Below, in pieces: positions 23,944 to 64,000 of a DNA stretch of 64,000 nucleotides; position 1 is the stretch's first letter; the number at the start of each line of letters is the position of its first letter. Under the pieces are notes generated by a model that ran no database searches, was not told the origin of the DNA, and worked only from the letters and a program-made list of their open reading frames with translations. This DNA is from Pachysolen tannophilus NRRL Y-2460. Taxonomy: Eukaryota. Both the position numbers and the translations under genes were made by a program. Location of the stretch: NCBI GenBank assembly GCA_001661245.1, contig KV454016.1:165868-229867 (forward strand), read 5' to 3'.

Positions 23944-24882
23944 ATGTCATTCTTTCAGAATTTGTAAGTTTTAAACTCTAAGAATTTTAAAGGCAAAAAA
24001 AAAAAAACAACAAAAAAACAAATAAAAGGTAAACAAGATTGATTACTAACAAAGTGTACAATTGTACACCGATTTTATAGGCATTTGAACAATAATACGA
24101 ACGGTCATACGATAAAGACAAATAGAGGGTTTAAGAAAGCTGGGGGTCAAGCTATAGGTAGTCTTTCACCAGAACAACAGCTGCTATCGTCACCTACATA
24201 TCCACATCAACAACAACAACAACAACAGCAGCAGCAGCAACAGCAATCGAATACGAATACGAATACGAATACGAATATAACCAGTCATAAAGATATTAGG
24301 AATTATGCCGAGTCTACATTAGGTTCCGGCAGTGCTCTTGCGCAAGCAGTTAAATTGCCATTGGATGAAGATGTTAATGAATGGATTGCAGTACACGTTG
24401 TAGATTTTTATAATCAAATCAATATGTTATATGGTACAATCACAGAGTTTTGTTCTCCAACAACTTGTCCCAGAATGATTGCAACACCTGAATATGAATA
24501 TTTATGGCAAGATTCTACTTCTAGAGATAAAAAACCTGTTTCTTTAAGTGCGCCAATGTATGTCGAGTCATTAATGCGTTGGATTCAAGGGTTTTTCGAT
24601 GATGATAATGTTTTCCCTTCAAAGATTGGTGCACCATTTCCACCAAGGTTCCAAACTCTTGTTAAAACTATAATGAAGAGATTATTTAGAATTTATGCAC
24701 ATATTTATTGTCACCATTTTGATGAAATTACTGAATTGGGCTTACAAACCCATTTAAATACTTCTTTAAAACATTTCATATTGTTTTCAAAAGAATTTGA
24801 TTTGGTTCAAGATAAGGATTTTGGACCTTTAAGAGAATTACTTCAAGCAATGTTACAAGATGATAAAAAAACTCCCATCTAA
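23944..24882 (+). CDS. MOB1: Mitotic exit network kinase activator; exons 23944-23963 and 24081-24882
   Basis: MSFFQN start, GTAAGT at 23964, TACTAAC, TAG ending 24080; [17 protein letters not shown]…[14 protein letters not shown]. Confidence 0.95.
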
Positions 24883-35449: not shown

Positions 35450-36547
35450 TTAAGCTAAAATTTCTTTAAGAGCTTTAGCAACAGCGTCACCGACTTCACT
35501 TGTTGAATTTTGACCACCCAAATCTCCAGTTCTTATTCCAGCGTCCAAGACTTTCTTAACAGCTTCTTCAAGAGCATCGGCTTCTTTAACTAAATTTAAT
35601 GATAATCTTAACATCATTGCAGCAGATAAGATTGTAGCAATTGGGTTTACTTTCCCCTTTGGTAAGTCTGGAGCAGAGCCATGACAAGGTTCATATAAAC
35701 CAAAAGCTGTATTTTTATCAGGTAATGAAGCTAAAGATGCAGATGGTAATAATCCTAATGAACCTGGAATGACAGAAGCTTCATCTGAAATGATATCACC
35801 AAACATGTTAGAAGTAATAACTATTCCATTTAATTTGGTTGGAGATTTAACCAAAATCATTGCAGCTGAATCAATTAATTGATGTTGAACAGATAATTGA
35901 GGAAATTCTTTTTCAATTGTTTCTTGAACAGTTTTTCTCCATAATCTTGATGAAGCTAATACATTTGCCTTATCTAAAGACCAAATTGGTAAAGGAGGAT
36001 TATTTTGTAAAGCTAAAAATGCAGCCATTCTTGTAATTCTTTGAACTTCTGGAATTGAATAAGCTTCAGTATCAGAAGCAAAACCTGAACCATCATCTTC
36101 TTTTCTTTCACCAAAATAAATACCACCAACTAATTCTCTAACAACTGTAAAATTTGTTCCTTTAACAATTTCTGCTTTTAATGGAGATAATTCTAATAAA
36201 GATTCTGAAGCAAAATTACATGGTCTTAAATTTGCATATAAATTTAATTCTTTTCTAATTTTTAATAAACCTTGTTCTGGTCTAACATCACCTGTCCCCC
36301 ATTTTGGACCTCCAACAGCACCCAAGAGAACAGCATCTGCATTTTTTGAAGCTTCAAGAGCCTCATCGGTTAATGGAACTCCAGCAGCATCAATAGCAGC
36401 ACCACCAATCAAATGACGTTGAAAATCAAATACGATTGTAGGATTAACTTCAGTAATTGCATTCAATACTTTTAAAGCTTCATCAATTACCTCTGTACCA
36501 ACATGATCACCAGGTAATACAACAACAGATTTCTTTGATATTGACAT
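35450..36547 (-). CDS. LEU2: 3-isopropylmalate dehydrogenase
   Basis: [40 protein letters not shown]. Confidence 0.98.
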
Positions 36548-36995: not shown

Positions 36996-37841
36996 TTATA
37001 TTTGTTCAGCTATAAAAGTATCGATATCAACTTCGGGTAAGGCGGCGTTTCCGGCTAATGAGACTTGTTGTTGAGCTTTCAGTTCTCTTAACTGCATTCT
37101 CTTTAATTTGCTTAAAGGTCCCCATCCTTGAACTGGAGGTGTTAATTGGAAAGGTTTTAAAAAACTTATAATTGTTTTAAAATTTTGACCCATTGTAACA
37201 ATTTCATGAATTAAATCTTCAACACAAACTAATCCCAAATCTCCAAATTTTTCTTCAATTAAATTATTATCATTTAAAGAAACTTCCTTCTTAGTTGTAT
37301 TATCATTTTCTGTATTTTCTATTAAAACTTTTGCTCTTTTTTGAATTAAATTTCTTATAGTTGATAATGATGGTTTCCCTGTGACAATATATGGAGAACA
37401 AAGTCTTAATAATGGTTTGATTGTTGGGGTTAATTTAACAAAAATAGCCGAATAATTATGATTTAATCTTAATAATGATAAAATTTTTTTAGTCTTGGAT
37501 GGAATCTTTGCTCCATGTGGACCAGGAATTCTAACTATAAATAATAATCTTGGTTTTTCATCATTTTCAATCTTGGAAATTTTCACCAGTTCTTGAATTT
37601 TCAACTTATCTTGTTCATTTTTAACAACTCTTTTAATTCTATAATTTTCTCTTTCAGATGCCCTACGTTTAGAAATAAGTGATTCTAATCTATTAAATTT
37701 TTGCTTTTTCTGATTTTTTTTCAACTGTTGTTCTTCAGCTTTCTTCCTAGCAGCTTCTTGTTTTTCAATTCTTAATCTATCTGCATTCTTTCTTTTCTTT
37801 AACAAAATCTCTGGATTTGAATTCAAAGGCTGGGATGACAT
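36996..37841 (-). CDS. RLP7: Nucleolar ribosomal-L7-like 60S biogenesis protein
   Basis: LNSNPEILLKKRKNADR, LNDNNLIEEKFG…VEDLIHEI. A PAC-like GAGATGAG lies at 37947-37954 upstream. Confidence 0.93.
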   Translation of the reverse strand: MSSQPLNSNPEILLKKRKNADRLRIEKQEAARKKAEEQQLKKNQKKQKFNRLESLISKRRASERENYRIKRVVKNEQDKLKIQELVKISKIENDEKPRLLFIVRIPGPHGAKIPSKTKKILSLLRLNHNYSAIFVKLTPTIKPLLRLCSPYIVTGKPSLSTIRNLIQKRAKVLIENTENDNTTKKEVSLNDNNLIEEKFGDLGLVCVEDLIHEIVTMGQNFKTIISFLKPFQLTPPVQGWGPLSKLKRMQLRELKAQQQVSLAGNAALPEVDIDTFIAEQI

Positions 37842-38276: not shown

Positions 38277-39734
38277 TCAATGGCCAGACCATTCAATAGA
38301 GTTTAAATCAATACCTTCTTTAACCATTTCCCATAATGGAGAAAGTTCTCTCAAGAATGTGACTCTATGGTTTATTGCAGAGATGACATAATCGATTTCT
38401 TCTTCGGTGGTGAATCTACCAATACCAAATCTAATTGAAGAATGAGCTAAAGCATCATCTGCACCTAAAGCATGTAAGACATAACTTGGTTCTAAAGAAG
38501 CTGAAGTACATGCGGAACCAGAACTTAATGCTATATCTTTTAAAGCCATCAATAAGGATTCACCTTCTATATAGGCAAATGAAATATTAACACAACCTGG
38601 ATAACGATGAATTGGAGAACCATTTAATTGAGTATGTTCAATTGATAATAAACCATTAATCAATTTATTTGATAATTTTTCAATATGTTTTTTATCTCTT
38701 TCACTTTCAGCCATTGTTAATCTTGCAGCTTCACCAAATCCACAAACCAGAGCTGGAGCTAAAGTACCTGATCTAAGACCTCTTTCTTGACCACCACCAT
38801 TTATAATTGGTTCCAATCTAACTCTTGGTCTTCTTCTAACAAAACATGCACCAACACCTTTTGGACCATAAATCTTATGTGAAGAAATTGACATCAAATC
38901 AATATTATATTTATTAACATCTAATGGAATTTTCCCATATGCTTGAGCACCATCTGTATGGAAAAAAACTTTATGTTTTCTACAAATTTTACCAATTTCT
39001 TCCAATGGTTGAATAACACCAATTTCATTATTTACAGCCATTATAGATACTAAACAAGTATCTTTTCTTATTGCTTTTTCTAATTGATCCAATTCAATTA
39101 AACCATTAGAATTAACTGGTAAATATGTAACATCAAAACCTTCATCTTGTAAATGCCTAGCAGAATCTAAAACACATTTATGTTCAGTTTGAGCAGTAAT
39201 TATATGTTTTTTAGTTTTTTTATAAAATCTTGGAACACCTTTAATACACATATTATTTGTTTCAGTTGCACCTGAAGTGAAAATAATTTCTTTTGGATCA
39301 GCTCCAATAACTTTAGCTATATTTTCTCTAGCTTTTTCAACTTCTTTCTCTGTTTCCCAACCATAAGCATGTGTTGATGAATGAGGATTACCATATAATC
39401 CAGTATAAAATTGTAACATTTTATCCAAAACTCTTGGATCAACAGGAGTTGTTGCTTGCATATCCAAATAAATTGGTCTTGTTCCATACAAATTATCATC
39501 TCTTTCAGCATTCTTTAAACTAATAGGTGATCCATCAGGAGCAGTCGGTGTTGTATTAACAGTAGCATTATTTATATTTGTTGGAGATGGTTTAAAATCA
39601 ACACTTGTACTTGAAAAAAACCTTGTGGCGGCTAAAATTTTTATATCTTTTCTTCCTATAATTTGACTTGGAAAATATTTTTGACATACATCTAAAGATA
39701 ACTTTTTAATCATATTATTCTTTCCTATCATCAT
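38277..39734 (-). CDS. NFS1: Mitochondrial cysteine desulfurase
   Basis: [20 protein letters not shown] (PLP Lys), [18 protein letters not shown]-terminal IEWSGH. Exact start ATG uncertain. Confidence 0.97.
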
Positions 39735-40412
39735 CGTCAAAATCAATAAAACAAAATAATAATAAAAAAAGATTAAAACAATTGATTAAACCAATATCAA
39801 TCAATTAACTTTAACGTAAAATTTGAATCAAATAATAGAATAAAAATAAATAATAATAATAATAATATAATTATTTAGATATGAGTTATATTATTTTTTT
39901 CTTTTTTACATATTTAGTTTAGTCACAGTGTCACAGTTTTTTAATTTAATTTTTTTAATTTTTTTCGCCTTGTCCTGAAATTAGAGGGGAAAGCCGAAAA
40001 GAATGGCTGGAAAAAGTAAAAAAAATTTTAATTTAGGTGTAAACCCTTTTGTTTTCGGACAGACTGCTGCTGATTATTAATACCGATGAATTCTCGGAAA
40101 CCGAAATTTGCTGCTGCAAGCTCCTGTTAACCAGAAGGCACAAGGCAAAAAAGAAAAAAAAAAGACTCTGCAGCACCCCGTATTAACCGGGGAAAGAAAA
40201 AAGAAGAAGAAGTTTTTTTTTGGTCGTTTGCCTTACCCTTTTCGGAAATAAAAAGAATTAATACCGCTAACATTCTTTGCACGTGGAACTTATATTTGCC
40301 GTTAAATGGCAGACTTTTTCTTTTTTGATATTTTGTACACGCACTTATAAATGCGCCTTTTCAATTATGAGTGTGTGCGCACTTGCCTATGTTTTTTCAG
40401 CTGGTGCTTGCT

Positions 40413-40422
40413 ATCACGTGAC
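40413..40422. promoter_or_regulatory. Cbf1-type site ATCACGTGAC in the NFS1-PET8 divergent promoter
   Basis: Exact RTCACGTG on both strands. Confidence 0.5.
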
Positions 40423-40596: not shown

Positions 40597-41531
40597 ATGG
40601 AGAAAGATCAAGTTATTGTTTCATTAATTGTATGTAATGACTTGAATTGAAATTTTTCAAAAAAGAAAAAATTAATTTATTTATTAACCTTCTTTTTTTT
40701 GTTTGGTATTAGAGTGGTGGAGCCGCTGGAACAGCTACAGATATTGCATTTTTCCCCATTGATACCTTGAAGACTAGGCTTCAGGCAAAAGGCGGGTTTT
40801 TCCAAAATGGTGGCTGGAAGGGGGTATATCGTGGTTTAGGATCTGCTGTGGTGGCATCTGCTCCATCAAGTGCTTTATTTTTCGTTACTTATGATTCTTG
40901 TAAAGTTTTTTTCAAAGGATATTTGAAACCATATTTCCATAATGAAGATAATTTATTACACGTTACTCATATAATTAGTGGTTCATTAGGTGAAATAATG
41001 GCTTGTCTTTTCAGAGTTCCTGCTGAAGTTGTAAAACAAAGAACTCAAGCATCACATTTTAAATCATCTTTAGAAGCCTTTAAATTTTTATTAAAAGATC
41101 AAAATAATGAAGGTTTAATAAGAGGTTTCTATAGAGGTTGGAATACTACAATTTTAAGAGAAATTCCATTTACTTCAATTCAATATCCATTATATGAATT
41201 TTTGAAAAAAAAATGGGCTTTTTATGAAGAAAATAATAAAATATCACCATTACAAGGTGCTACATGTGGATCAATTGCAGGAGGTACTGCAGCTGCTTTA
41301 ACAACACCATTGGACGTTTTGAAAACAAGAATCATGTTACATAAGGAAAGAATTGGTTTAGTAGCATTAACAAAAAATTTAATAAAAGAAGAAGGTTTTA
41401 AATCTTTATTAAATGGAATGGTACCTAGAATCTTATGGATAAGTGCTGGTGGATTCATATATTTAGGAATGTACGAAACTGTGCACTTTATATTAACTGA
41501 GAGAAATGAAATAAATAAAAAATTACAATAA
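40597..41531 (+). CDS. PET8: Mitochondrial S-adenosylmethionine carrier; exons 40597-40629 and 40713-41531
   Basis: Spliced N-terminus VSLISGGAAGTATDIAFFPIDTLKTRLQAKGGFF; three carrier motifs. GTATGT donor, TATTAAC branch, TAG acceptor. Confidence 0.93.
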
Positions 41532-41645: not shown

Positions 41646-41749
41646 CTCCTCATCAGGGGCTCGAACCCTGGACATTTCGGTCGACTTCTTTGTCTCGAAA
41701 TGAAACAATCCTTAAAAGCCGAACGCTCTACCAACTGAGCTAATAAGGA
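41646..41749 (-). tRNA. tRNA-Lys(TTT) with ~31-nt intron
   Basis: TCCTTATTAGCTCAGTTGGTAGAGCGTTCGG-CT TTT A…intron…CCGAAATGTCCAGGGTTCGAGCCCCTGATGAGGAG. Confidence 0.95.
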
Positions 41750-45489: not shown

Positions 45490-46062
45490 TTAATCATGTT
45501 CAACAGGTAAGCTCTTTGGACGTTTTTGTAAATATTCCTTCTTCCTAAGTATTTTTTCTTCTTCACTTTCTTTCTTCCCAGGATATAAAATTTTTGAATC
45601 TATTTCATTACTAAATTCTTCTTCATAAGGTTTTGGTTTAAAACTAAGTTCAACATCTTTCCAATACCTTTTAATTTGACCAACACAATGCATACACAAG
45701 AAATGAGACCTTTTATAATTCCCACAAGTTGGACATCTATTTAAATTATGCAAAAATTTAATTTGTTTATCACCTGGAGCTAATAATTTTTGTCTTTTCT
45801 TTTGATGAGAAACTTTCTTCTTTGGTGCAGCTTTCAATAATCCATTATCTATGAAAAATGGAGATTTCTCAGAGCTCCCATTTTGAGATAATTCTTCTCC
45901 CAATTCAATCAATCTTGGATCAATATTACCATTATCATTTTCAGAAAATCCCTTTTTCAACCCAATTTGAATTTCTATACTAGGTATTCTCGGTAAAAAA
46001 TTTGAAACCCTGCCTATAACCGCTCCAACAGCAATCACGGCCTCTCTCAGAACAAACAGCAT
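45490..46062 (-). CDS. MRPL32: Mitochondrial ribosomal protein bL32m precursor
   Basis: LLKAAPKKKVSHQKKRQK, CPTCGNYKRSHFLCMHC. First ATG at 46062 (reads MAFVAR… with CUG=Ala). Confidence 0.93.
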   Translation of the reverse strand: MLFVLREAVIAVGAVIGRVSNFLPRIPSIEIQIGLKKGFSENDNGNIDPRLIELGEELSQNGSSEKSPFFIDNGLLKAAPKKKVSHQKKRQKLLAPGDKQIKFLHNLNRCPTCGNYKRSHFLCMHCVGQIKRYWKDVELSFKPKPYEEEFSNEIDSKILYPGKKESEEEKILRKKEYLQKRPKSLPVEHD

Positions 46063-46715: not shown

Positions 46716-47711
46716 ATGACAACTGCTACTACTTCAACAACTGCGGCGGTTAGTTCCACGATTCAACCAAAGAGTTATGTTGGTTTTGATACAATTACTT
46801 CACAAATTGAGAATAGATTGTTGAAAAGAGGTTTTCAATTTAATGTTATGTGTGTTGGTCATTCTGGTTTAGGTAAATCAACTTTAGTTAATACATTATT
46901 TTCATCACATCTTGTTGATTCTAATGGTAGAAAAAATGTTTATGAACCAATTGAAAAAACTTCAGAAATTAAAGTTAGCTCACATAATTTAATGGAAAGT
47001 AATGTTAATTTAAAAATTAATATTATTGATACTCCTGGTTTTGGAGATCAAATTAATAATGATAGATGTTGGGAACCTATTGTTAAATACATTAAAGAAC
47101 AACATTCACAATATTTAAGAAAAGAATTAACTGCACAACGTGAAAGATATATTGTTGATAATAGAGTTCATTGTGTATTATACTTTATTACACCAAATAA
47201 TAAAGGTTTAAAAAATTTAGATAAAATTGTTTTAAAAAAATTGTGTGATATTGCTAATGTGGTTCCAATTATTGCTAAATCAGATTCATTAACTATAGAA
47301 GAAAGATTAAATTTTAAAAAAACATTACAAGAAGAATTTGCTGCAAATGATTTTAAAATTTATCCTTATGATACAGAAGATTTATATGATGAAGAATTAC
47401 AATTAAATAAAGATATTAGATCTTTAATTCCATTTGCAGTTGTTGGTTCTGAAAAGGAAATTACAACAGAAAAAGGTGAAATTGTTAGAGGTAGAAAGAC
47501 AAGATGGGGATCAATTAATATTGAAGATATTCAACAATGTGAATTTGTTTATTTAAGAGATTTTTTAACAAGAACACATTTACAAGATTTAATTGAAACT
47601 ACTGCTTCAATCCATTATGAAGGTTTCCGTTCAAAACAATTATTAGCTTTGAAAAACAATGCAAATTCAGGTAATAGAGCTTCTTCAACAACACAAAATG
47701 GATTCCATTAA
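46716..47711 (+). CDS. CDC10: Septin
   Basis: YVGFDTITSQIENRLLKRGFQFN, GHSGLGKSTL, DTPGFGD, AKSD. Confidence 0.96.
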   Translation: MTTATTSTTAAVSSTIQPKSYVGFDTITSQIENRLLKRGFQFNVMCVGHSGLGKSTLVNTLFSSHLVDSNGRKNVYEPIEKTSEIKVSSHNLMESNVNLKINIIDTPGFGDQINNDRCWEPIVKYIKEQHSQYLRKELTAQRERYIVDNRVHCVLYFITPNNKGLKNLDKIVLKKLCDIANVVPIIAKSDSLTIEERLNFKKTLQEEFAANDFKIYPYDTEDLYDEELQLNKDIRSLIPFAVVGSEKEITTEKGEIVRGRKTRWGSINIEDIQQCEFVYLRDFLTRTHLQDLIETTASIHYEGFRSKQLLALKNNANSGNRASSTTQNGFH

Positions 47712-47813: not shown

Positions 47814-48145
47814 NNNNNNNNNNNNNNNNNNNNNNNNNNNNNNNNNNNNNNNNNNNNNNNNNNNNNNNNNNNNNNNNNNNNNNNNNNNNNNNNNNNNNNN
47901 NNNNNNNNNNNNNNNNNNNNNNNNNNNNNNNNNNNNNNNNNNNNNNNNNNNNNNNNNNNNNNNNNNNNNNNNNNNNNNNNNNNNNNNNNNNNNNNNNNNN
48001 NNNNNNNNNNNNNNNNNNNNNNNNNNNNNNNNNNNNNNNNNNNNNNNNNNNNNNNNNNNNNNNNNNNNNNNNNNNNNNNNNNNNNNNNNNNNNNNNNNNN
48101 NNNNNNNNNNNNNNNNNNNNNNNNNNNNNNNNNNNNNNNNNNNNN
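47814..48145. other. Assembly gap (N run) bounded by poly-T and poly-A
   Basis: Continuous Ns. Confidence 0.99.
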
Positions 48146-49815: not shown

Positions 49816-51047
49816 TTACTCAAATCTGTAATTTTGTGGTTGTTGCTGCCCATAGCTGTTGCTCATATCCTGATAGCTGCGGTTGTAATTTCCGTAATAT
49901 TCCTGACCGAATGGTTGTTGAGGGAGTCCTCCACCAAACGCAGATGGGTTATATTTGTTATATTGAAGCCCCGAAAACTGCAGCAGAGGTTGAGGGATCA
50001 TCTGAGGAAGTCTCAGCTGCAGTTGTTGCTGTAGTTGTTGTAGTTGCAGCTGCTGTTGTTGTTGTTGTTGCAGCTGTTGTTGTTGATGTTGATGTTGTTG
50101 TTGACGTGGTACGAGTTGATGATGCGATGGCAGCACTTGCTGTTGCACTTGTTGTACTTGTTGTTGTAGTTGTGTGTTTGATTGCTGCTGTTGTAAGCTC
50201 ACCGATGTATTTGTAGACAACACCCTTTGAGTTGAGACTGGAGTTGACTTACTGTTGGATCTTAATTTCATATACTCTTTGTAATACTCTTCAGTAACAC
50301 CAAAAGATTCAGGATCTCTTAAAAATAATATTTTAATAATTTCTTTACATTGTTTATCGGTAAAATGTTTACCAGTTGATTTTAATAATTCTTTTGCTAA
50401 GAATCTCCATTTCTCAACTTCTCCTTCGTCTACTAAACTCTGAAGGGTGGCAATATCTTCCGCGTTACATTCAGATGTACCTCCTCCTTGTTGACCGATT
50501 AAAACCTGATATCTATTTCTAGCAGCTAAGAAACTTCCAACTCCAGTTATATCTGCTACGTCAACCCATGATTTACCAGCTTTTTTCAATTGAACAATCA
50601 TTTGATCTTGTTCTTTCGAATATTTGGAACGTCTTCTTGCCCTACGAGGATGGTTTTCTTGTAATAATGACTCTGGATTAATAGGAGCAATTGATAGAGG
50701 AGGATGTGGTAATACTTTGGCTAAATTTTCAACCAAAGGACTAACTGGTGCATTGTGGTTAACAATCTGTTGTTGCAGAACTTTTGGTTGAGTATAATAG
50801 ATCGGATTGGCAATGCTAGGACCCCCAACACTAGTTACTGTACTATTCTTAGCATAAGTTTGAAATTGTTGTTGTTGTTGTTGTTGTTGTTCCCTATAAT
50901 ATTGGTGATGTGGATGCTGTAAATCTGCTTCATATGACAACTTGTTATCTCCAAGTTTGGTGTTATTATTATCACTACTATTATTATTATTATTATTAAT
51001 ATTATTATTATTATTATTATTAATATTATTAATATTATTATTATTAC

Positions 51048-51101
<54 letters not shown>

Positions 51102-51105
51102 TCAT
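49816..51105 (-). CDS. Myb/SANT-like domain protein with poly-Asn N-terminus and poly-Gln C-terminus (putative regulator)
   Basis: RRRSKYSKEQDQMIVQLKKAGKSWVDVA…ARNRYQVL is Myb-like; long (AAT)n and (CAA/CAG)n tracts. Confidence 0.75.
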
Positions 51106-51963
51106 TGTTCATGCAAGTAAAAACTATTCTTTGACTAACTTCAATCAACAATATTGTTATTGAAAAATATTATATATGTTATATTCTGTTATGATATTAT
51201 TATCAAAAAAATATTGTTCATTCAAATATATAAAAAATAATTATAGTCAAATGCTCCAAAAAAATTCTTAAATACTTCAAAATAACTAGTATTAAACAAA
51301 TTGTTTAAAAAAAAAGTACATATTATTAAAAGTATCAGACAAATTATTCATCGAAGATTTAAAAAAACTTCTGTAATAAATAATAACCTGATATTTTTTT
51401 CTACATAAATCTTCATGTTCCTTACGGTAGCTCCACTTATTTGGTACTTCTGCTGCGCATATATTGGCTAAATTTAATTTCACTAGAAAAACTCTGGTGA
51501 TTTATTCTAATGCGCATACTGAAAAAAAAAAAAAAAAAAACAAAAAAAAAAAATCTAACTTCGAGAATCCATGATAAAGTACTTCAATTTATGCGGTATA
51601 TCGTATTCTATACTTAATCTGTGATCTTTATAGTGAAAGTTTTAAAATTAAAACCTTTCATATCTTGCTAGATTTCTGTTATCAACTGCCACCATTTTCT
51701 ATTATTAACCTTTTATTGATAAGAGATATGACTATTATTTAAAAATGCACAAAAGCCAAAAACGTCCATCCACACTTTTCTTTACGTATGCGAACACCGA
51801 TGGGACTATTGTTAGCTAGCTACAAATCTGACTTTTCTTTTCGGCCTCGAAAAATAGAAAATTTACTAGTAAAATAACTCTCTTCGAGAAAAGCTATTTC
51901 CTTAATAGGAAAAAAAAAACTACTGAAAACGATAAAAAAAAAAATTGTTTTTATTTCAAGATC

Positions 51964-52035
51964 TGGACGTGCCCGGGTTCGAACTGGGGTCTTTTTCACC
52001 TGAAGAAAACGCGCTAACCACTGCGCCACACGCCC
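51964..52035 (-). tRNA. tRNA-Ala with CAG anticodon (decodes CUG as Ala)
   Basis: GGGCGTG TG GCGC AGTGGTTA GCGC G TTTTC TT-CAG-GT GAAAA AGAC CCCAG TTCGAAC CCGGG CACGTCC A. G3:U70, A73, short variable loop, downstream T-run terminator. Confidence 0.93.
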
Positions 52036-55000
52036 TTAAATACTAACTTTTAATGACAAAATTATCTATATTTATTGATAAAACTAAATTTAAATAGTTT
52101 TAAATCCACATTGATATAATGCTTCAACTAGCAAAATATACTTAGCCTAACGGAAATTATGTAGATATAATCGCTACAAATTTTTTAAAAACCCGTTTTT
52201 ACTATCTTTATAGCTACAATATAAATAAAATAATCTCTTCAACTCGTATTCGACACTTTAGCCTAAACGATTCAAATCAATTAAGAAGTTCTTGATTTTT
52301 CTCCTTTGGGATTCTAAATCTTAAAACGAACACAGTACCAAAAATACTATATTAAATAAATCAAAAATGAAAACACAATCATTAAGTGCCCTCAAAAATA
52401 AGGCTAGATATTGATTGAGATCAATAACTATTTACATCAAATGATGTTTGTTAAACAATAAATTGAGGCTACAAGACAACTCAAACGATTGATAATCTGA
52501 AAAGATTTATCCTAATTAGAGATATAGACTTGTTTTCGCTTAGCTTCACCATTATGTGTCCAAGTGCTCATTATTTTAAATGACAATGATTTTTAAATAA
52601 TAATTGTTTACTGAACAAGTAATTTTTTTTTCAAAAAGAGACGAAGAGAAACTAAAATAACCTTACACCTCAAACCCTTATATATTTTCCCGTTACATTT
52701 TTCTTCATTGAGACCTATTACTACTGTCATGAAAAATTCAAATACTAAAGACTGCTTCCAATAAATCTTGAAAGAAAACTTGTTACAAAACTCAAACAAA
52801 GTAATTAGTATCGAAGGATTACATCGTTCCTTTACATGCAAACTTGAAAAAATACACTTTATCTCAAATTAGGGAAACAAAAAAAGAGTTCAGCATTACG
52901 TTGAATTTTTATGAAAGTTAAGGGCTTACTTCCTTATCTTTGTAACTACAATTCTTTGAGTATGAGTGCACTGCAGCTCCAATTCGAATTTCAACTAACC
53001 GGTTAGTAGCCCAGACAATAACTGCGAAAGAGACTATACACAATAAAAGACATCTAATATCAGATTTTCTCTTTGTGATTTGAAAGCAAATATCAAAAGA
53101 AATCAAATGAAATATCCAGTAAAAGCGAAAGCCTATTTCAAAAACAGTGAAATAAAACGTTTTGAAATCTATTCTGTTTTCATAAACTTCATACATTTGT
53201 CTAATACATGAAACCACTTTGTTTTTTTTTGTTTTTTTTTAATTAATCTTTCTGTTTAGCAATATCCTTCATTAGCTATGGAAAAAATTTCGGCTCGAAA
53301 AAAATTTCAGCATCCAAACTATATTTGAATTAAAATAAATTTCACTGAGCTGTATCTTCACCAACTTCACCTTCAGCTAATTGAAGAAACTAATACATAT
53401 TTTAAAAGTAAACGCTACAGCTAGGTCAATGAGTAAACATACTCTTCTCCATTGACTCGATAAACAGCGAAATATCAAAACTCAATTTTATCAAAAAGTA
53501 AACTTGGACCTTACTCGCTAGATAGGATCAATGGATTTTGTTGCTCGTTTGTAAAACGCAAAAGCGACTACAGGTTTATAAAGGTGTTTCTTCAAAACTT
53601 TGATCTCGCAGAACATTAAGAAAGTTATATATTCAACAACTAAAAAACTTCAAAGTAAGAGTAAAACAAATACAATAGGGTTCTGTTAGTTAATAGTAAA
53701 TTTTAGTTGATATAACTTAATTTAGATTAACCGAAATTTAGAGAGATTTCTAAATCAAATTTTTTTCTTACTGATTTAATTTCTTTAACCAAATTGTATT
53801 AATGTATATTTGGAAACCCATTACTCAATCAATATACACCGTCGTTTGCATTCCATGAAAAAAAAAAAAAGAATTAAAATTCAGGTTTCAGAGATTGACT
53901 AATTAAAAACTTTTAGATATTACTGTGAACGCCAAGAACCTACTGAACAACCCCCAAGAGACTATGGACATTACCATTCTATTTTCATCATATTGGTTCG
54001 TTTCAAATAACAGTTCTGAAGTCCTATTACAAATCAACAACTACAATATAATATCAAGTCCCCTTTGACAAGTTTGTCCTCCGAGAAGAAGAGAGTTGAT
54101 CATTGAAGAAGCCAAACAAGGACCAATATCTATTTAAAGGTAGATTTGTAGGAAAAAAAACATTGATGGGCTTCTATTTTCTTTACCCTCTATTTTCGAA
54201 CTTGTTATTTTTGAATATTAACTTTCTTTATGTAATTGAAGTACGAAGTTCACTGTTAAGCTTTGACTTAACCAGTTGGACTAATGGTCTCAGTTTACTT
54301 AAAATGTAAGGCACTCACTCGCTCATATCTGAGATTCCTAATGTTCTGAAGTTGTTACCCCTGTTTAGCAGGATAGTGTAGCCGATACCGTTATACAGTC
54401 CTCCATATTCTCGCAACACCTTAAACTTACATTGTAATGAGATGTAATACTTATCAAAAGTAATTGATTGTTACAAGGCAAAATAAAATTAAAATACTAA
54501 ACTTTTCAAAATAAGAATCTGGAAGCAGAAAACACTATTCGTTTGCTCCGATGCGATTAAAATATATCTAATACCTTGGGTTCGTTAATTTTTATTTCAG
54601 ACTTTAATGAGATTCAAAACAAAACACTAATTTTGCTAGCTATACGTTTAGTCTGTAGCCTAGCGCTGATGGGGGGCAATTTATATGGAAAGTCAATTGC
54701 AAAGTTTTAAAGAAAAGAGATAAAAAATAACGCTTTTCCGATTCTGTATGTTGTCCTCATTCTAAAAATCTCAATTTTTATCTCTAAGAACTGTTCTCAG
54801 TGGAGCTTTTAGTTTTCCGAGTAATTAACCTGTTGGATAATAAATTTGCTTTTGGGATGAAATCCATTGAACCTACCTACTATTGTATGTGGATATAGAA
54901 GAATGCTGATATTTCCATATACTGAACAAGAGAATTGGATTCACGTATTTTTTTGAAAATACTTCTTCTCTCTTTCCTTATTACTTGCGAAGCAGCACCG

Positions 55001-58000
55001 AATTTGCTATTTGAACTTAAAAGAAGATGCAGGGACTTCAGAAGCTCTTTTAATCGTTTGCTTTCATTTGAACTTGAGTTTCTCTAGCAACATAAATGCT
55101 CCCCAACAGTTCTAGTTATGATGCAATAATTTATATAGTATAGATTTAGAACGATATAAGCAAATAGCATTGGGCCACTCACAACCTAAAGGTGAAAAAA
55201 AAAAGTCCATATGCAAAATCTCAAGATGGATCCGTCAGGGTATGAACAGTTTGGATCAGTTACTAACCTTTAAATCTTGAAAATAAATATGATGCATTGC
55301 GTATCAAGGGAATATCAATATCATTCCTTTACTTCGTTAGTGACTAATTGATCACGACCATTTTTCAGAGCCCTCTTCCTGTTCACTTCTTATCTCTCAT
55401 CTATTATTTAAAATTCACCCTGAAGAGTTTCTGAACTAAGTTATTTGGATTTGCATTTAGACATAGGGGAGAAGATCATATTTTTAGGATCGATTGTTGA
55501 TAAGTCATAAACCTCTAAATCCATACTAACTGACAATTATTTGAGTGTTTTGTTTAATTTGCTTGTATTCTTTTTCGTGCCACAATTTCCTTTACCTTAG
55601 TAATAAATCATTTATTATTTATATCCCAACTGTAGAAGTGGTTCAATCGAAGCAAATTCCAAAAGAAAAACAATCTGCTAACGACGATGCAAGATATTTA
55701 ACGGTTATCTAAAACTAAGTTGATTGCAGCGAAAAACGAAGAAGTCAGAAGTGAGTTCTGTGATCAAAACTTAGATTTCCAGAATAATTGCTCCTAACCT
55801 TAAAAATCACGATTCGTTTATACACGAGAGCGCTCACTCAAAGTTCTGATTACACCTTCAGAAATACTTAGATAAGGCAAAACCAGAACCTGGAAATTTG
55901 TTAGTTTTAGAGAATTCAATTTAAATAAGGATATCATTACAACGTGTTTCTTTCAGGATATTGAATTCTCATCTCAAAAATGTAAAACTCATCAATGGAA
56001 TCTTAAACGAATTTACTTCATTTTAGTCGTAGAAACAACCAGAATCAGAAGCTTTAATTGGTTTTGTTTAGTTACTTATCCTGAGGAATTTATGGAGAGA
56101 GATAGTCGGAATAGAAAATCAGCAAAAATTATAACACATCTTCGTTCAGCTGACATCAATTTTTTTCTACTTTTTTATTAGTTACTTAGTAAACATTTTT
56201 AGTTTCCCCCAATGCAGAATGGGAAGCTTGTGCTAAAGCTTCGAGTCTAGATGTGAATTCTAGTTAATATGAGCTGTGTGCGAAAATTTATTTAGTGCCT
56301 TAAAAATAAAAAGTATTCCGAGTGCTGTATTTGATGTTTCATTTGCATTTGTGTTTTCGGAAGATGTCAGGAAGAATAACTTTAAAGCATTTTTTCTACA
56401 AGATCAGGGACAATAACTTCAACAAATCGAACATAATCTACGGGTTTCGTGAAAGAACTTGAGTTCAGACAAAAGTTAAGTTAAGGAATAATTGAATCTG
56501 ATTTGTAATATCAAAAACTTGTGATCAATTAAATGGATTTTTAGTTCAGATTCTTCTTTTAGCTAGTATGAGGTACCTTCTCTAATACTTTTGAAGTATA
56601 CTAATATCCTTAATATTTTCTATTTAGCAAAGAATGTTTACTGTAAGAGCAAAACAAAGATTAGGAGCTCTGTTGTTTTTTAATTTTTTCACGCTTTTTT
56701 ATGGATGTTTTTTTAATTTTCTGCAAAATAAAAGTAAAAGAGAAACTAACTTAGGATTGTCTCTTGAATCTTTTGTATCTTATTGAAAGATACAGGCCAT
56801 ATTTTTGTTTACGAGTTGCCTTTCATTTTACAGTTTATGAGGTTAGTAACTTCAACGTTAGGTATTCCCTGAATGTATCGATTGACCAGGCAGGTATAGG
56901 TAAGTTCCTTCGCAAGTGATGTAGCAGTTTTTTTCGAAGAAAATAACTTAATTATTGTTTCGTCACTATATTCTACGTTGACTGAAATAGTTTGAAAACA
57001 GTAAAGTGATTTATAGAACTCTTTAATAGAGAACTAGTTTTTTATTCTAAACTGGTGAGATAGAAAATACCTGGCAAATAAGAAGCTATTACTAGATTTT
57101 GCTAATTTTTATTTCTAAAGAAAAAATTCGAGCTCGCAATACATCGAAGCTATCTATGTACTACATCTATTTCTCTTAGGACATTCATTGATTGCAAGGC
57201 CCAAACGGATTGTTATTTCTTTAGGATCACTTACTAAATATTTGAAATGCGTTCTCTGTCTGGTGCATGAGTTTCGTTATACTGTTTATCTCCTTGTATG
57301 CTGTTGTTTCGAATAGTATCGTAATAACAAATACTTTTATTTAGTTTTTAGAATAATTTTTTGAAATAATGTGTTACCGACAGCAAATGTTTTATTTGAA
57401 GGCAGGATTCGTTTTTCGGTGCCTTTCAATTAAACATTTCCTTACATACATAGAGGATTAGTGATTCTGGTATTTTGCCCTTGATTTTTTACCTTCTTCA
57501 ATTTTAAGAATATAGAAATTACATTGATAAGGCAAATAAATTTCTTCTACTTTGTATTTCCAAAAGGCTCAAAAGTCACTTTTTGCGGAACGTGAAATCA
57601 AGTTTCAGTGCAGTAAAGGCAATTCATAATATGATTACAATTAGAAATAACAGTAAGTCATAGCTATTGTTATAGAGACCAATAAAACCTGGCAAAGTTG
57701 AATTTTTATTTTGTAACTAGACTCTAATTCGTAATAAATATTCTTCCTAGAAAATGTATCTCAATTATAGAAAAGATTGATATTTGGTATAGGATTGAGA
57801 TCGGAAGGTCGCTGTTAGATAAAAACAATGTTCTGTTTTGATGAAAAATAAAACGATGGATGCGAATTGGATATGGTCCTCAAGTTTCAAAAGAATGTGT
57901 TTTTCTGGAGGACGTAGTCTTAGATCATCAGATTTTAAAAAATAAGGTAGTCTTCTAGAAAGAAACTTTAAAGATAAATTCAAGTAATACCAACTTATGA

Positions 58001-58261
58001 AGATGATAAAAATCATAATGAAGAATTTGTGAAAAAGTTATGAATTTTGTTGGTTACAACTTTTAAGCATAGGTAATTAGTTTATCCGAATATCGTCAAT
58101 TTGGATATTAGCGACCATTGTCGTTAGATAGAAATAATTAAATCTTGTATTGATAGTTAGATCATATTTTTACACTAAACTCGGGCATGTTGAATTACGT
58201 TTTGTAAGTTCAAAAAGAAAAAAAGTTCTATTGTCTATTCAATGTGAAATAAAATCAATAG
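52036..58261. other. 6.2-kb gene-free block, candidate regional centromere
   Basis: No ORF of 100 aa or more; by far the longest intergenic region; flanked by orthologues of centromere-linked genes. Confidence 0.6.
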
Positions 58262-60637
58262 CTATGCTAAATAATTATAAACGTTCCGATCGTCACTCGA
58301 CCTTGCTAAATACTCTCTTTCCAATAAAGCTTCAATCCTTTGTTTTATTAGGCTAGGAGGAGGTTTAAACCTGTTTTGAAGCTGTCTAATGGTTTCATTC
58401 ATTAGTTCATTATGCGTTGCCGTCTTCCTTGCCTTCATTATTCTCACAATAGCGGCATCTGTTTCATACTTTCTCGACCTATCGACACTTTCTATAGTTT
58501 TACCACGTTCAGAATCATCTTCTGGTTTATTGGATAAAGAAACGGCGCTAACTTTTACCTTCGTCAAATTTGAATGAAAATTTTCATTTATCTTAAAAAC
58601 ATCATCGTGCTTTACGTCTCTAGACATTGGTTTTTTAATCAATAATCTTGTTCTTGGGGCCACGGATATGGATTGTAATTGTCTTTTCAATTCTTGCTTA
58701 GGAATATTCGTTAATTCATAAATTTCATCAAATGTGTATTTTTTGTCAGAAGTTTGGTTATCAAAAAGCATTATTATCGCCCCAGAATAAGTTGGCATAT
58801 TGATTTCATATAATTTTTTTTTAAATCGCATTCTGATATCAACGGTACCAAAATTTGGAGCCCAAATTAATATTCTAGCATTGTGCTTTGATAAATAAAA
58901 ATTTTCATATTTTTCTTTCAAAGTGTGAAGACTTTCAGGGAATTTAAAATTATTATCTTTGGTGAGAGGCAATGGCCAAAAAGTGGTAGTTAAAATATTC
59001 ACATCAACCTCTAACTTTTTTTTAGATAGTTCCTTCTGATTATTAGGAGCAACTTCTGCCGCCTCTTTCAATTGCAAAGTTTTAAATTCCGAGGACAAAT
59101 CTTTTGATATCTTAATATCTCTAAACATACCTTCCAATTTGGAAGTAAAAGATGCACCGAGTTCCTGTTTAATCTTACTGATCATACTCCGTTCGAGTTC
59201 ATTTGAAATGGATTTTTGTTGTAATAATCTTTTTGCCAAATGTTTTTTATAATATTTTTCAAACAAATCTTTATCCTTTATATGTCTGAAGATAACAATT
59301 GATTTATCTAAGATGGCTTCACATTCTTCTTCTGTTCTGTTTTTAAATGCACGTTTAATACAGTCATCAATAAACAATGACAAGTATTCACATACGTTAT
59401 TTGATGTGTTCAATAATTGGGAGATTGATGAGTTTATAGCTTTAGCAAGTTGCTGATTGTATGCAAAACTTTTTTTCAAAATTTCTTCATATTTGTCCAT
59501 TAATTCCAAAATATTTTCAACCCATTTTACGGCAAATTGAGTTGTATTTTCCTTTCCAGTTGATTTTGATTGCTTATTGGAATTTGTTAAATTATTTATT
59601 GGTGATACTAGTTCCTTAGTTTTTTTCATTAAATCATCTCCTTCATTTAATATGATTTCATGAAATAAAATTTTCAAGATTGAGAGTTCAGTATCACATC
59701 TTAAAACAAGCTTATAAATCAAATTTAGTTGAGGTAATTTGATATTATCTACCAAATTTTTCAAACCTTCATTTTCAAATCTTAAGATAATATTTAAATT
59801 TTTATCAATTAAGACATTATTCATTAAATCAACCAATTTTGGGAAAGTGGTTTGTGGTAAGTATAATATATTTCTCTGTTCTTCATCTTTGATCAATTGA
59901 TCAATCTTATTAATATATACTAATCCATTTTGGAAAGCTATAATTTCATTGGATATCTTGTTATAAAATTCTAAAGATGCATCCAAAAATACAGGTTCAA
60001 AATATTTCACATAATAATTTTCACCATCATCTTTTTCTCCTGGTAAAGTTTCTAACATATAAATAATTGATTTTATTAAAAATTTATCAATAATTTCACC
60101 AGTATCTCTATTTTTATTAACTTCATTAATCACTATTCTTATGATTCTATCTCCAATTTCATTATTATTATATTTAATAATATAATCTCTGAATAATTCT
60201 AAACCAACATCATAAATTAACAACAAATGATTTTGTTTTGAATAAACTCTATTGAGATACATCAATACATCACTTATCATTCTTGTTGAAAGTAAATTTT
60301 CTTGCCATTGTTTATTAACTTCCAACAAAAATTTTTTATCATCTTCTGTGGTACTTAAAATTTTAGATCTAATATCACAAAGTAAATGTGTCTTTATAGA
60401 TTCCAAGACATTATTATATAAAGATTTCCCAAACTTTCTTAAAACTAAATTATATGAAATTCTATAAAGCTCTTCAAATGATAAACTTGAAGAATTTTTT
60501 GATTGGATTTGCTTGATTGCAAATGATAATACTTCCCATGATTTGTTGAAATCAACTTCAGAACCAGATAACGTTTTCTTGGGAGGCCTGATTTTCGTTC
60601 TTTTCAAACTATGAGCAGAAGAATCATTGATAGACAT
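58262..60637 (-). CDS. CUL3: Cullin 3
   Basis: KIRPPKK, LSFEELYRISYNLVL, DKDLFEKYYKKHLAKRLL, neddylation site DAAIVRIMKARK. First ATG at 60637. Confidence 0.93.
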   Translation of the reverse strand: MSINDSSAHSLKRTKIRPPKKTLSGSEVDFNKSWEVLSFAIKQIQSKNSSSLSFEELYRISYNLVLRKFGKSLYNNVLESIKTHLLCDIRSKILSTTEDDKKFLLEVNKQWQENLLSTRMISDVLMYLNRVYSKQNHLLLIYDVGLELFRDYIIKYNNNEIGDRIIRIVINEVNKNRDTGEIIDKFLIKSIIYMLETLPGEKDDGENYYVKYFEPVFLDASLEFYNKISNEIIAFQNGLVYINKIDQLIKDEEQRNILYLPQTTFPKLVDLMNNVLIDKNLNIILRFENEGLKNLVDNIKLPQLNLIYKLVLRCDTELSILKILFHEIILNEGDDLMKKTKELVSPINNLTNSNKQSKSTGKENTTQFAVKWVENILELMDKYEEILKKSFAYNQQLAKAINSSISQLLNTSNNVCEYLSLFIDDCIKRAFKNRTEEECEAILDKSIVIFRHIKDKDLFEKYYKKHLAKRLLQQKSISNELERSMISKIKQELGASFTSKLEGMFRDIKISKDLSSEFKTLQLKEAAEVAPNNQKELSKKKLEVDVNILTTTFWPLPLTKDNNFKFPESLHTLKEKYENFYLSKHNARILIWAPNFGTVDIRMRFKKKLYEINMPTYSGAIIMLFDNQTSDKKYTFDEIYELTNIPKQELKRQLQSISVAPRTRLLIKKPMSRDVKHDDVFKINENFHSNLTKVKVSAVSLSNKPEDDSERGKTIESVDRSRKYETDAAIVRIMKARKTATHNELMNETIRQLQNRFKPPPSLIKQRIEALLEREYLARSSDDRNVYNYLA

Positions 60638-61099: not shown

Positions 61100-62706
61100 A
61101 TGTCTTCTTCGTCGGATATATTGGATGTATTGAATATCACAAAAGATGAACATCTGGCTAATAAGGTTACGAGGAAAAATCAGCTTTCTGTTAAGAATAA
61201 TAAGAAAGCAAGACGTAAGTTAATTTTTTTTTCTTGTTCTTTTCTTTTAACGTTATACTGACAAAATGATTTGTAGAAAATGGTATGAATCGTGAATTGT
61301 TTAACTTGATTGGGTCGAATATTCCTCCTGTTATGTTGACGAATAAAAAAAGTAATAAGTTTAAGCAGAGATTGAATTCGAATAATAAGCCAACACCTTG
61401 GACATGGTGTGAATTTAAAAATAATGCAAGAGGTGATAATTTGAAGTTATATCATTGGGTTAAAGGCTCTGCTGATTTGAATAAAGACAAAGTTTATATT
61501 TTTGAAAAATTTAATAGTCATTTAGTTCTTCCAAAAATTGAAAGTGAAAGTGATTATAACGAAAAAAATTTACAAGATGATGATTGGAGTTATGAAGAAA
61601 CCAAATATTTATTTGAATTATGTAGTGATTATGATTTAAGATGGATTGTAATTCATGATAGGTATCAATTTGATGATAGAAGTATTGAGGATTTGAAAGA
61701 AAGATTTTATAAAGTATCTGAAAAACTTTTAAGTTCATCAGATATAATACCAGATGAAAAAACTAGAAATATAATTAATTCATTACAATCATTTGATAAA
61801 CAAAAAGAAATTGAAAGAAAAGAATATTTAGTTAAATTGTTGAAAAGAAGTCCAGCTGAAATTGCTGAAGAAGAAAGTTTGGTGATAGAATCAAGAAAAT
61901 TCGAATTAGCTGCTAAAAAAATGCTTACAGAAAGAGCTTCGTTATTAAGAATATTAGATTCTCCACAGGCAACAGCTTCAATACAACAGTATCAAACTTC
62001 ACATGGCTTAACACAATTATATAATGCTTTAATGATTAGCGATAAGCACAAGAAGCGCAAGGTTGAAACTCCAATTCCCCCTCAAATACCGCCTGCTGCT
62101 GCGACTCCTTCTGCACTCATAGCGGAAGCTCAAGCCCAAAATAAACAACAACAACAACAACAACAACTACAACAACAACAGCAACAGCAGCAGCTGCAAT
62201 TACAACAAGCTCATGGCCACCACCATCATCATAAAATGTCCCAATCTGGTTCACAACAACAACAACAACAACAACTATCGCAGCAACTGTCACCGCAACT
62301 GTCACAACAACAGCAGAAGAGAAAATTTTCAGTCAGTTCGTTATTGCCTCCTGAAAAGCAACATAAGAAAAATTCAAATTCACAAATTGCAAATTTATTA
62401 GCAAAAAAATTGACACCAGAAGAACAAATGTTATATGGCATAAGCTATCACTCAGAAAAATTGACTCCCGGTGTTTCATTAAGGTCAGCAAAGATTACTT
62501 CGTTTAGGCCAGCTGTTCAAACAAGAATTAATAGTGTCTTGAATGAATTGGGTATTGCACCAAAACCAACAATACCAACTGCTAAGGTTTGTGAAAAGTT
62601 TGAAATTTTATTACACACCATTAATTTATTATTAGATGCAAAGAGGCAAACTGATAAATTGGAAACAGAAATAAAAATAATTGCGTCACAAAGGCAAAAG
62701 CAATAA
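61100..62706 (+). CDS. SWC4: SWR1/NuA4 subunit (DMAP1 family); exons 61100-61214 and 61277-62706
   Basis: MSSSSDILDVLNI exon 1, GTAAGT at 61215, TACTGAC branch, TAG ending 61276; GMNRELFNL, SANT WSYEETKYLFELC…DLRW. Confidence 0.93.
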
Positions 62707-63009
62707 TTTTTTAAAGAAACATATTTATATATGTATAATTGTATAATAATGAAGTTTTAAGTGGATGATTTCTATTGTATTTTCAAGTTTGATTTGTAAA
62801 AATAAAATTAATATATGCATTTATATAGACAAAGAAGTAAAGTAAAAACTGGAAATTAAAAACAAAAAGTTACAATGTCAGTTTTAAAGTGTTGAATAAA
62901 TAACAAAAGCAGCTGCAACTACAGCTTATGGAAGTAAAGTTTAGTTAAATATAAGGCAACTAAAACCAAAAATTAATAAAAAAAAAAAAAAATGCAAAAA
63001 AAAGTCTGT

Positions 63010-64000
63010 TTAATTAATAATCAAATCAGTATTGTCTTTATTACTTTCAATGCTAAGTCCATTCTCATTTGCTAAATGTAACAAACAAATAAAACAAAAA
63101 CTCGTTGATAAATCTGAGCGTTCTTCTTTTGAATATTTCCCACTTAGTTCGTGAACAACCTCTGTAAATCTCAACGGGCTTTTTGAATCTGGATTAATAT
63201 TCAGCTTCTCAACACCGTATTTCAAATGATCATTTTCATCTCCAGTAACCGAAGTCAGTGAATGGTCAGGAGTTACGAAAGAACTACTGCCACCAAGTTC
63301 ACCATTATCTGTATTTATTTTTAATTTTTTTATTTTGTTAAAAGCATCCCATAAATTTTCTTTCAATAACTTGACGTCAACTCTTTTAGCAATTCTTGCA
63401 AAATTTATCGTATTTGGTCGGAACTTTGTTTGTGAAGTTATCAATTGAGAACCATAACCTAGATTGAGATTTATATTGTTTTCTGCAACGTTAAAATTGT
63501 CATTATCAGGTGCTGCATTGATGTCAAAATCGGGCCCTCCTGAATTTACAAGTCCAATGCTATTACTATAATGATCATCAAATGATTGGTGAATCTCTTG
63601 AATATCTTGTTGAATAATATCGTTTATTCTGCTATGTCTTGATATTGAGTTATTGGGGAGTTGTTTATCTCTTTGTTCATACTTATCAGCATAATAATTT
63701 TTATCTATTGGTTGATTTTCATCATCATCATCATTATCTCCATAGCCGTCATTATTGAAATTTTCTCCGTAACTCCTTTGTTGTAAAACTTTTTTCTTAG
63801 TTTTAAATAGTGATGTGTTTATTAATCGAGAAGGTTTTAAAGAAAGATAGATAAAGTTTTTGGTTGTAAAATTTTGATCATCAGGTAATAAATGGTTAGT
63901 TTCTGATATCCACTGGGTCCTAGGTAATAACGTATTTTCATCCTGTTTAAATAAATTTTTCTCATTAGTGACATTGTTTGACAAGAAGTCGATCTTGAAC
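63010..64000 (-). CDS. BRN1: Condensin kleisin subunit, C-terminal part (gene runs off the window)
   Basis: LLPDDQNF, FARIAKRVDVKLLKENLW, STSFCFICLLHLANENGL. Confidence 0.9.
   Translation of the reverse strand, partial: FKIDFLSNNVTNEKNLFKQDENTLLPRTQWISETNHLLPDDQNFTTKNFIYLSLKPSRLINTSLFKTKKKVLQQRSYGENFNNDGYGDNDDDDENQPIDKNYYADKYEQRDKQLPNNSISRHSRINDIIQQDIQEIHQSFDDHYSNSIGLVNSGGPDFDINAAPDNDNFNVAENNINLNLGYGSQLITSQTKFRPNTINFARIAKRVDVKLLKENLWDAFNKIKKLKINTDNGELGGSSSFVTPDHSLTSVTGDENDHLKYGVEKLNINPDSKSPLRFTEVVHELSGKYSKEERSDLSTSFCFICLLHLANENGLSIESNKDNTDLIIN

Follow-up and report, generated by a model that had tools for sequence, protein, structure and literature searches.

On contig KV454016.1 of the yeast Pachysolen tannophilus NRRL Y-2460 (assembly GCA_001661245.1), a block of 6226 bp that holds no gene is, with a likelihood that we put slightly above even, the centromere of its chromosome. 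It would be of the Candida albicans kind, short, regional and free of repeats, in a yeast of the clade that reads CUG as alanine. The block occupies positions 52036-58261 of the window, by which we mean the whole 64,000-nucleotide stretch analyzed (positions 165,868 to 229,867 of the contig, forward strand); all coordinates below are those of the window. A unique-sequence regional centromere had been proposed here by an earlier sequence-only reading of this DNA, and the non-coding, repeat-free nature of the block, its gene neighbourhood and its nucleotide skew fit that proposal, for this locus alone. The block as a centromere is a prediction, and no new kind of element has been discovered.

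52036..58261, no strand: candidate centromere, a gene-free, unique, non-coding block (from ORF, codon, Pfam and repeat scans)

A long block of featureless non-coding DNA

The block runs from the end of a transfer RNA (tRNA) gene at 52035 to the stop codon of a CUL3 orthologue. With the spacer that carries the tRNA gene included, the gene-free span is 51106-58261 (7156 bp), between the end of an open reading frame (ORF) at 51105 and CUL3 at 58262, and an ORF scan of this span found no ATG-initiated ORF of at least 100 amino acids. Inside the block the longest ATG-initiated ORFs measure 92 and 83 amino acids, and the longest stop-to-stop frames 106 and 101. The 28 other internal spacers of the window have a median length of 548 bp and a maximum of 1263 bp, so that the block is about five times as long as any other (z = 4.3 on a log scale). 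The sequence-only reading had reported 6.2 kb without an ORF of 100 amino acids or more, against under about 1.5 kb for other intergenic regions, and was right on both counts.

The composition of the block also sets it apart from other spacers. The window is very AT-rich (20-38% G+C per kb); low G+C is usual for Pachysolen tannophilus. At 0.30, the G+C content of the block compares with 0.302 for the pooled genes and a median of 0.229 for the spacers; it exceeds that of 23 of the 28 spacers, and several of the five that reach 0.299 probably hide exons. Runs of at least seven A or T account for 18 bases per kb in the block, compared with a spacer median of 78 per kb and a minimum of 30 per kb among the 16 spacers of at least 500 bp. 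No (TA)n tract occurs in the block, and none of the 20 low-complexity repeat families listed for the whole window has a copy between 52036 and 58261. The poly-A/T and (TA)n depletion that had been noted from the letters is therefore genuine. By gene coordinates, no protein-gene promoter directly faces the block, and the poly(dA:dT) tracts typical of promoters in this window are scarce within it.

Five public sequencing runs from two studies cover the stretch. Two of them (X1 and X5) each give one unbroken contig across 51562-62134, and a third (X2) gives two contigs, 51562-56688 and 56709-58215. Over 15.9 kb the runs differ from the window by 0 substitutions and are therefore probably of the same strain; only homopolymer lengths differ, by one base, at the following positions.

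51306, 51909, 51933, 53857-53858, 55195, 56708, 58814, 61223, 61562: homopolymer-length differences between the runs and the window

Because contigs of two studies span the block unbroken, it is correctly assembled, and because contigs built at k=31 pass through it without a break, it has no long exact words that recur elsewhere in the genome. The block is thus real, single-copy DNA.

Neither coding traces nor known elements were found in it. ORF lengths match random expectation: a frame of at least 106 amino acids arose in 26% of 300 second-order Markov simulations, and frames of at least 60, 80 and 100 amino acids number 8, 4 and 2 in the block against simulated means of 9.6, 2.1 and 0.45. 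When codon usage was learned from the window's 30 ORFs and used to scan the sequence, the log-likelihood was negative in each of the six frames between 51.5 and 58.0 kb, compared with +17 to +59 (maxima of 500-nucleotide bins) over the flanking genes. In 68 stop-to-stop pieces and six read-through frames (with X at stops) Pfam gave nothing significant, and no match at all to reverse transcriptase, integrase, protease or gag. The sole weak Pfam match in the block is to Ribosomal_L31e (E 7e-4 in the piece, 0.058 in the frame), at about 53816-53914 on the plus strand; these 33 residues correspond to the N-terminal part of eL31 (PDB E 0.03-0.08) and are broken by a stop, with no continuation downstream. 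A match of this length that falls short of significance once six frames have been scanned, and that does not continue downstream, was rejected as an RPL31 pseudogene, and may be a chance resemblance or a very old pseudogene scrap.

Searches for RNAs and repeats agree with this picture. Across the block Rfam reported only the tRNA above threshold; a small nucleolar RNA (snoRNA) candidate at 55946-56036 (snoR64) was rejected, as its 27 bits fall short of the gathering score of 45 and its alignment lacks box C. The best inverted repeat touching the block is a pair of just 37 nucleotides at 70% identity, and the longer inverted pairs in the window are all low-complexity sequence or runs of N. There are no direct repeats resembling long terminal repeats (LTRs) and no tandem arrays inside the block, and no k-mer of 9-14 nucleotides is enriched in it above Markov simulations. 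TFIIIC B-box boundary sites were rejected as well, since none lies inside the block; B-box matches in the window fall in the tRNA genes and at one-mismatch sites at 20971, 41658 and 49661. The block is featureless non-coding DNA. The impression by eye that it lacked inverted repeats and LTRs is upheld by the repeat search, and the self-comparison suggested as a check for hidden repeats found none, whether inverted, direct or tandem, within the block.

The same results bear on a different origin for the block, as a very old decayed insertion (an LTR retrotransposon upstream of the tRNA) or a set of pseudogenes eroded past recognition. The block begins where the 5' flank of a tRNA gene does, and retrotransposons classically target such sites; its 6.2 kb is the size of an element, its G+C is gene-like, and the L31e-like stretch could be a remnant. 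Yet no retroelement domain appears in the six read-through frames, no LTR-like repeats were found, the ORF lengths are random and the codon score is negative in every frame, the unbroken contigs indicate no 31-nucleotide word shared with the rest of the genome, and the L31e match loses its significance once the six-frame scan is counted. A decayed insertion, which the sequence-only reading had named as an outcome that would undo its proposal, has left no retroelement domain, LTR or coding trace here, and we regard this origin as decidedly unlikely.

Strand asymmetry and a putative replication origin

A second line of evidence comes from nucleotide skew, which changes sign within the block.

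55900..56200, no strand: switch point of the GC and keto skews (cumulative minimum 56040 for GC, 56050 for keto)

The GC skew rises from negative to positive along the block (Spearman rho 0.77, p 4e-7, 31 windows of 200 nucleotides), and the depth of the resulting V has p 2e-4 when blocks of 100 nucleotides are shuffled. The AT skew runs the opposite way and more weakly (rho -0.41, p 0.02). Both trends persist after 500 or 1000 bp is trimmed from each edge, and a chi-square comparison of the sequence left and right of 56040 gives p 1e-6 for G against C and p 0.006 for A against T. Such opposed signs are not gene-like, because genes in the window have both skews positive on their coding strand (GC +0.119, AT +0.095) and because the larger GC-skew jumps, seven in number, all sit at gene boundaries, six of the seven with a positive change in AT skew.

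The pattern resembles one described for C. albicans, in which all eight centromeres lie in long intergenic regions where GC skew passes from negative to positive, AT skew changes in the opposite sense and more weakly at the same switch point, and G+C is higher than in the surrounding non-coding DNA (Koren et al., 2010; PMC2924309). Koren et al. attribute this signature to a constitutive origin at the centromere that fires earliest, and it has served to predict centromeres in other yeasts (PMC2924309). By analogy, the skew switch at about 56.04 kb may mark a bidirectional replication origin of long standing. A symmetric skew switch with an opposite AT skew would not result from a dead element, a further point against a decayed insertion.

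A skew switch points to an origin, which is not necessarily a centromere. The block could be a non-centromeric gene desert, neutral or origin-bearing DNA that builds no kinetochore, while the chromosome has its centromere at some other place; skews were also seen in C. albicans at two internal origins and at several telomeric sites (PMC2924309). Neutral DNA, however, would be expected to drift toward the spacer median of 0.229 G+C and to fill with A/T tracts, which the block has not done, and a gene desert leaves unexplained why orthologues of the neighbours of two ancestral centromeres meet at this place (see below). On balance we hold such a desert to be unlikely.

Transcription offers another route to the asymmetry. 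G+T skew from transcription is established for mammalian genes, and the keto skew of the block (G+T over A+C), which switches at 56050, has the shape expected of divergent transcription; the block could then be a long non-coding transcription locus, with, for example, two divergent RNAs from about 56 kb whose non-template strands gained an excess of G+T. No Rfam family supports this, the best snoRNA-like match falling well below its threshold as described above, and the poly(dA:dT) tracts of the promoter type are scarce. A 6-kb unit would moreover be unusual in a genome so compact, and the synteny would go unexplained. We allow non-coding transcription the same small probability as a decayed insertion.

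Gene neighbourhood and known centromere types

The genes around the block supply the strongest argument for a centromere. The orthologues that carry it, and the tRNA gene at the left border, are as follows.

35450-36547, minus strand: LEU2 orthologue (3-isopropylmalate dehydrogenase)
36996-37841, minus strand: RLP7 orthologue (244 bits to RLP7 against 121 bits to RPL7)
38277-39734, minus strand: NFS1 orthologue (mitochondrial cysteine desulfurase)
45490..46062, minus strand: MRPL32 orthologue, bL32m (best PDB match yeast mitochondrial L32, E 9e-40)
46716..47711, plus strand: CDC10 orthologue, a septin (PDB, yeast Cdc10 462 bits against Cdc12 228; Pfam Septin)
51964..52035, minus strand: tRNA-Ala(CAG), 72 nucleotides, left border of the block, 5' flank toward the block (ARAGORN; Rfam 57.6 bits)
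58262..60637, minus strand: CUL3 orthologue, its 3' end abutting the block (Cullin-3 468 bits against Cullin-4B 347; Pfam Cullin)
61285..62706, plus strand: SWC4 orthologue, divergent from CUL3 (PDB SWR1-complex protein 4, E 9e-127; Pfam SANT_DAMP1_like)

To the left, the CDC10 orthologue is 4.3 kb from the block, the CDC10-MRPL32 pair spans 4.3-6.5 kb, and RLP7, NFS1 and LEU2 lie at 12-17 kb; to the right, the CUL3-SWC4 pair occupies 0-4.4 kb. In Saccharomycetales these genes are close neighbours of centromeres. SWC4 and CUL3 are presumably YGR002C and YGR003W, the second and third ORFs to the right of Saccharomyces cerevisiae CEN7. The sequence-only reading had named these genes as neighbours of S. 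cerevisiae centromeres; orthology stands for CDC10, MRPL32, CUL3, SWC4, RLP7, NFS1 and LEU2, and PET8 only at the level of its family. Its wording that SWC4 and CUL3 flank CEN7, and RLP7 and PET8 flank CEN14, was loose, as each pair presumably shares one side of its centromere.

In the pre-duplication ancestor of Saccharomycetales, the centromere Anc_CEN1 lay between DOM34 and MRPL32 (PMC12711049), and its descendants in S. cerevisiae, CEN3 and CEN14, resemble the locus studied here in having MRPL32, CDC10, RLP7, NFS1 and LEU2 nearby. Four genes of the Anc_CEN1 neighbourhood have nearby gene numbers in Hanseniaspora uvarum (MRPL32 g2228, CDC10 g2229, DOM34 g2231, RLP7 g2235; PMC13017519). Centromere location is described as being kept across orders while structure changes, with arm exchanges and small inversions as usual events (PMC12711049), and genes linked to centromeres in Saccharomycetales are reported to remain so in Pichiomycetes (PMC13017519). 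On the side of CEN7, EFM5, the first ORF beside that centromere, served as a centromere marker in Pichiaceae (PMC6692504). Judged by these orthologues, two ancestral pericentromeric neighbourhoods appear to meet exactly at the block. The exact ancestral junction is rearranged: RLP7, NFS1 and LEU2 belong to one side of Anc_CEN1 and MRPL32 and CDC10 to the other, whereas here all five are found to the left of the block. Because both sides of Anc_CEN1 lie to one side, a local rearrangement or a shift of several kb has to be assumed.

The tRNA gene identifies the clade. Its acceptor stem, read from the sequence, has the G3:U70 pair that confers alanine identity, and it is not a leucine or serine tRNA because its variable arm is short (class I). 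By these features it is a tRNA-Ala(CAG), which is the mark of CUG-Ala yeasts; its label in ARAGORN, Leu, comes from the anticodon alone. Reading of CUG as alanine defines the order Alaninales, with Pachysolen, Nakazawaea and Peterozyma (PMC11182611).

A gap in the scaffold beside CDC10 is another place nearby that could house the centromere.

47814-48145: scaffold gap of 332 N (and one N at 47799), directly 3' of CDC10

To the left of the gap stands poly-T, more than 30 nucleotides long, and to its right poly-A. The gap appears to be a hard-to-sequence, AT-rich, possibly palindromic spot, and of all positions it is closest to the ancestral Anc_CEN1. A short AT-rich or motif-defined centromere outside the block, for example inside this gap, would suit the long poly-T and poly-A flanks and the site immediately 3' of CDC10, the more so as the centromere adjoins the MRPL32-CDC10 pair in Saccharomycetales and Hanseniaspora (PMC12711049; PMC13017519). 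The gap is estimated at just 332 bases, however, and a centromere there would leave the block, its skew and its composition without explanation. Short genetic centromeres, of the point or proto-point kind, also need CBF3/Ctf13, which PMC13017519 reports for Saccharomycetales and Saccharomycodales alone. The chance that the centromere lies in the gap or elsewhere nearby seems to us very slim.

Returning to a centromere within the block, its closest likeness is to the centromeres of C. albicans and Candida dubliniensis (Serinales), which are gene-free, 4-18 kb in size and free of visible repeats and of a shared motif (PMC12711049) and which carry the GC-skew switch, weaker opposite AT skew and raised G+C described above (PMC2924309). 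The block falls within that size range, shows the combined skew and G+C signature, and lies at a location syntenic with the centromeres of related lineages. It differs in belonging to Alaninales, in the modest size of its skew jump and in that its Cse4 occupancy, early replication and epigenetic inheritance are predictions.

Other regional types share some of these traits. In Wickerhamomyces anomalus, W. canadensis and Starmera quercuum (Phaffomycetales) and in Kuraishia capsulata, the centromere is, like the block, one intergenic region of 2-9 kb at a conserved location (PMC12711049). Those centromeres have a motif of 17-200 bp that is common to the chromosomes and confined to the centromeres; here, with one window to consider, no motif is iterated in the block, and contigs that stay unbroken at k=31 make it less likely that the block holds long shared motifs of near-identical sequence. 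The Ty5-cluster centromeres of Ogataea polymorpha, Scheffersomyces stipitis and Cyberlindnera likewise occupy a conserved site near centromere-linked genes (PMC13017519), but the block is single-copy and has no retroelement domain in its read-through frames and no LTRs; it was rejected as a member of this type, with degenerate solo LTRs of an unfamiliar family still conceivable.

Three further types were rejected. A point or proto-point centromere would bring a CDEI-CDEII-CDEIII arrangement, with CDEI and CDEIII on either side of a core of 80-200 bp with more than 85-90% A+T. A scan with CDEI and CDEIII motifs found no such arrangement in the 64-kb window, in line with the impression by eye of the sequence-only reading; the sole pairing of CDEI with CCGAA, at 40241-40422, encloses a spacer of 65% A+T, and the block contains no 80-nucleotide stretch with at least 90% A+T, the maximum being 0.85. 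The inverted-repeat centromeres of Komagataella phaffii, Candida tropicalis and Pichia kudriavzevii have no counterpart here, there being no pair on the kb scale. The AT-trough centromeres of Clavispora lusitaniae and the Candida auris group do not fit a block whose G+C equals that of genes and exceeds that of most spacers.

Several observations weigh against the block as the centromere. First, the evidence comes from one locus of one chromosome, and from its sequence. Second, two genes with short spacers now stand at the ancestral Anc_CEN1 junction itself, where the RLP7/PET8 side met MRPL32. Third, the gap beside CDC10 could hide a short AT-rich centromere in its 332 N. Fourth, the GC-skew jump of the block (+0.178) is modest, ranking eighth in the window, and divergent non-coding transcription may also produce a keto skew of such shape. 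Finally, Ty5-cluster centromeres are said to occur in Alaninales (PMC13017519), and the block is without a trace of Ty5.

The remaining features of the neighbourhood lie to the left of the block, apart from a possible further gene at the right end.

40998-41531, plus strand: ORF of a mitochondrial carrier (Pfam, family level)
41646-41749, minus strand: tRNA with an intron, 104 nucleotides, missed by ARAGORN (Rfam 54 bits)
49816-51105, minus strand: glutamine- and asparagine-rich ORF of 429 amino acids, without a Pfam match, adjoining the tRNA at the block's border

Leftward beyond MRPL32 come a JmjC/F-box gene, an ADH-like gene, the intron-bearing tRNA and the mitochondrial carrier ORF. The carrier ORF, whose identity as PET8 is confirmed at family level alone ('mitochondrial carrier'), holds two of the usual three carrier repeats, and the Mob1 ORF at 24424-24882 (plus strand) matches its Pfam profile from position 38 onward; for both, 5' exons behind introns are suggested, because the spacers upstream are G+C-rich (0.31) and the proteins incomplete. 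The intron-bearing tRNA, placed between the carrier ORF and the ADH-like gene, has by eye the anticodon UUU (Lys) and lies where the two ancestral arms of Anc_CEN1 join. Between the scaffold gap and the glutamine- and asparagine-rich ORF lies a GT8 glycosyltransferase gene. The latter ORF opens with a run of about 46 (AAT)n codons, which on the plus strand reads as a TTA array (50963-51100); with its long CAA/CAG runs it encodes a protein extremely rich in asparagine and glutamine. At 63001-64000 on the minus strand, one frame has a positive codon-usage score, which indicates another gene that continues past the window's right end. When metagenomes were scanned with the cullin protein, 150 stretches matched the pattern, none of which encodes a relative.

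Predicted function and significance

We hypothesize that a domain of nucleosomes containing Cse4 (CENP-A), a few kb long, would be held epigenetically within the block on featureless, promoter-poor DNA, with the tRNA gene as its left limit and the 3' end of CUL3 as its right limit, and that this domain would build one kinetochore. The same site would serve, at about 56.0 kb, as a replication origin that is constitutive and fires early, and over evolutionary time this origin could have written the excess of G over C and of T over A into the sequence and raised the G+C content. The site itself would descend from ancestral pericentromeric DNA, its CDC10-MRPL32 side from Anc_CEN1 and its CUL3-SWC4 side from a region like that of CEN7, brought together by arm exchange. 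What the sequence shows is the anatomy of the block, its non-coding nature, its single copy, its skew pattern and the orthology of the genes around it; occupancy by Cse4, kinetochore function, origin activity and the history of rearrangement are predicted. That all of this holds together, so that the block would be the first centromere described from Alaninales, featureless, free of Ty5 and of repeats, epigenetic, about 6 kb long, doubling as an origin and formed from pericentromeres joined by arm exchange, is in our estimation a little short of an even chance.

In full-text literature searches no published map of centromeres came to light for Pachysolen or any other member of Alaninales, and none was found in the literature that connects CUL3/SWC4, MRPL32/CDC10 or EFM5 with centromeres. 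The main text and eight supplementary files of PMC13017519 mention Alaninales once and name no species of that order, although a figure supplement may name one. According to the introduction of PMC12711049, characterized centromeres beyond Saccharomycetales are those of Serinales and Pichiales alone.

Budding-yeast centromeres change fast in structure while their location seems stable, and their ancestral structure is under debate (PMC12711049; PMC13017519). If the prediction is true, a syntenically placed centromere of Alaninales that lacks both repeats and Ty5 would be a useful data point in that debate. It would extend conserved centromere location to a further order, and it would mean that the C. 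albicans type, with its origin-linked skew, arose or persisted outside Serinales. For P. tannophilus itself, a yeast that ferments xylose and glycerol, the block offers a concrete 6-kb target, including for the construction of stable plasmids.

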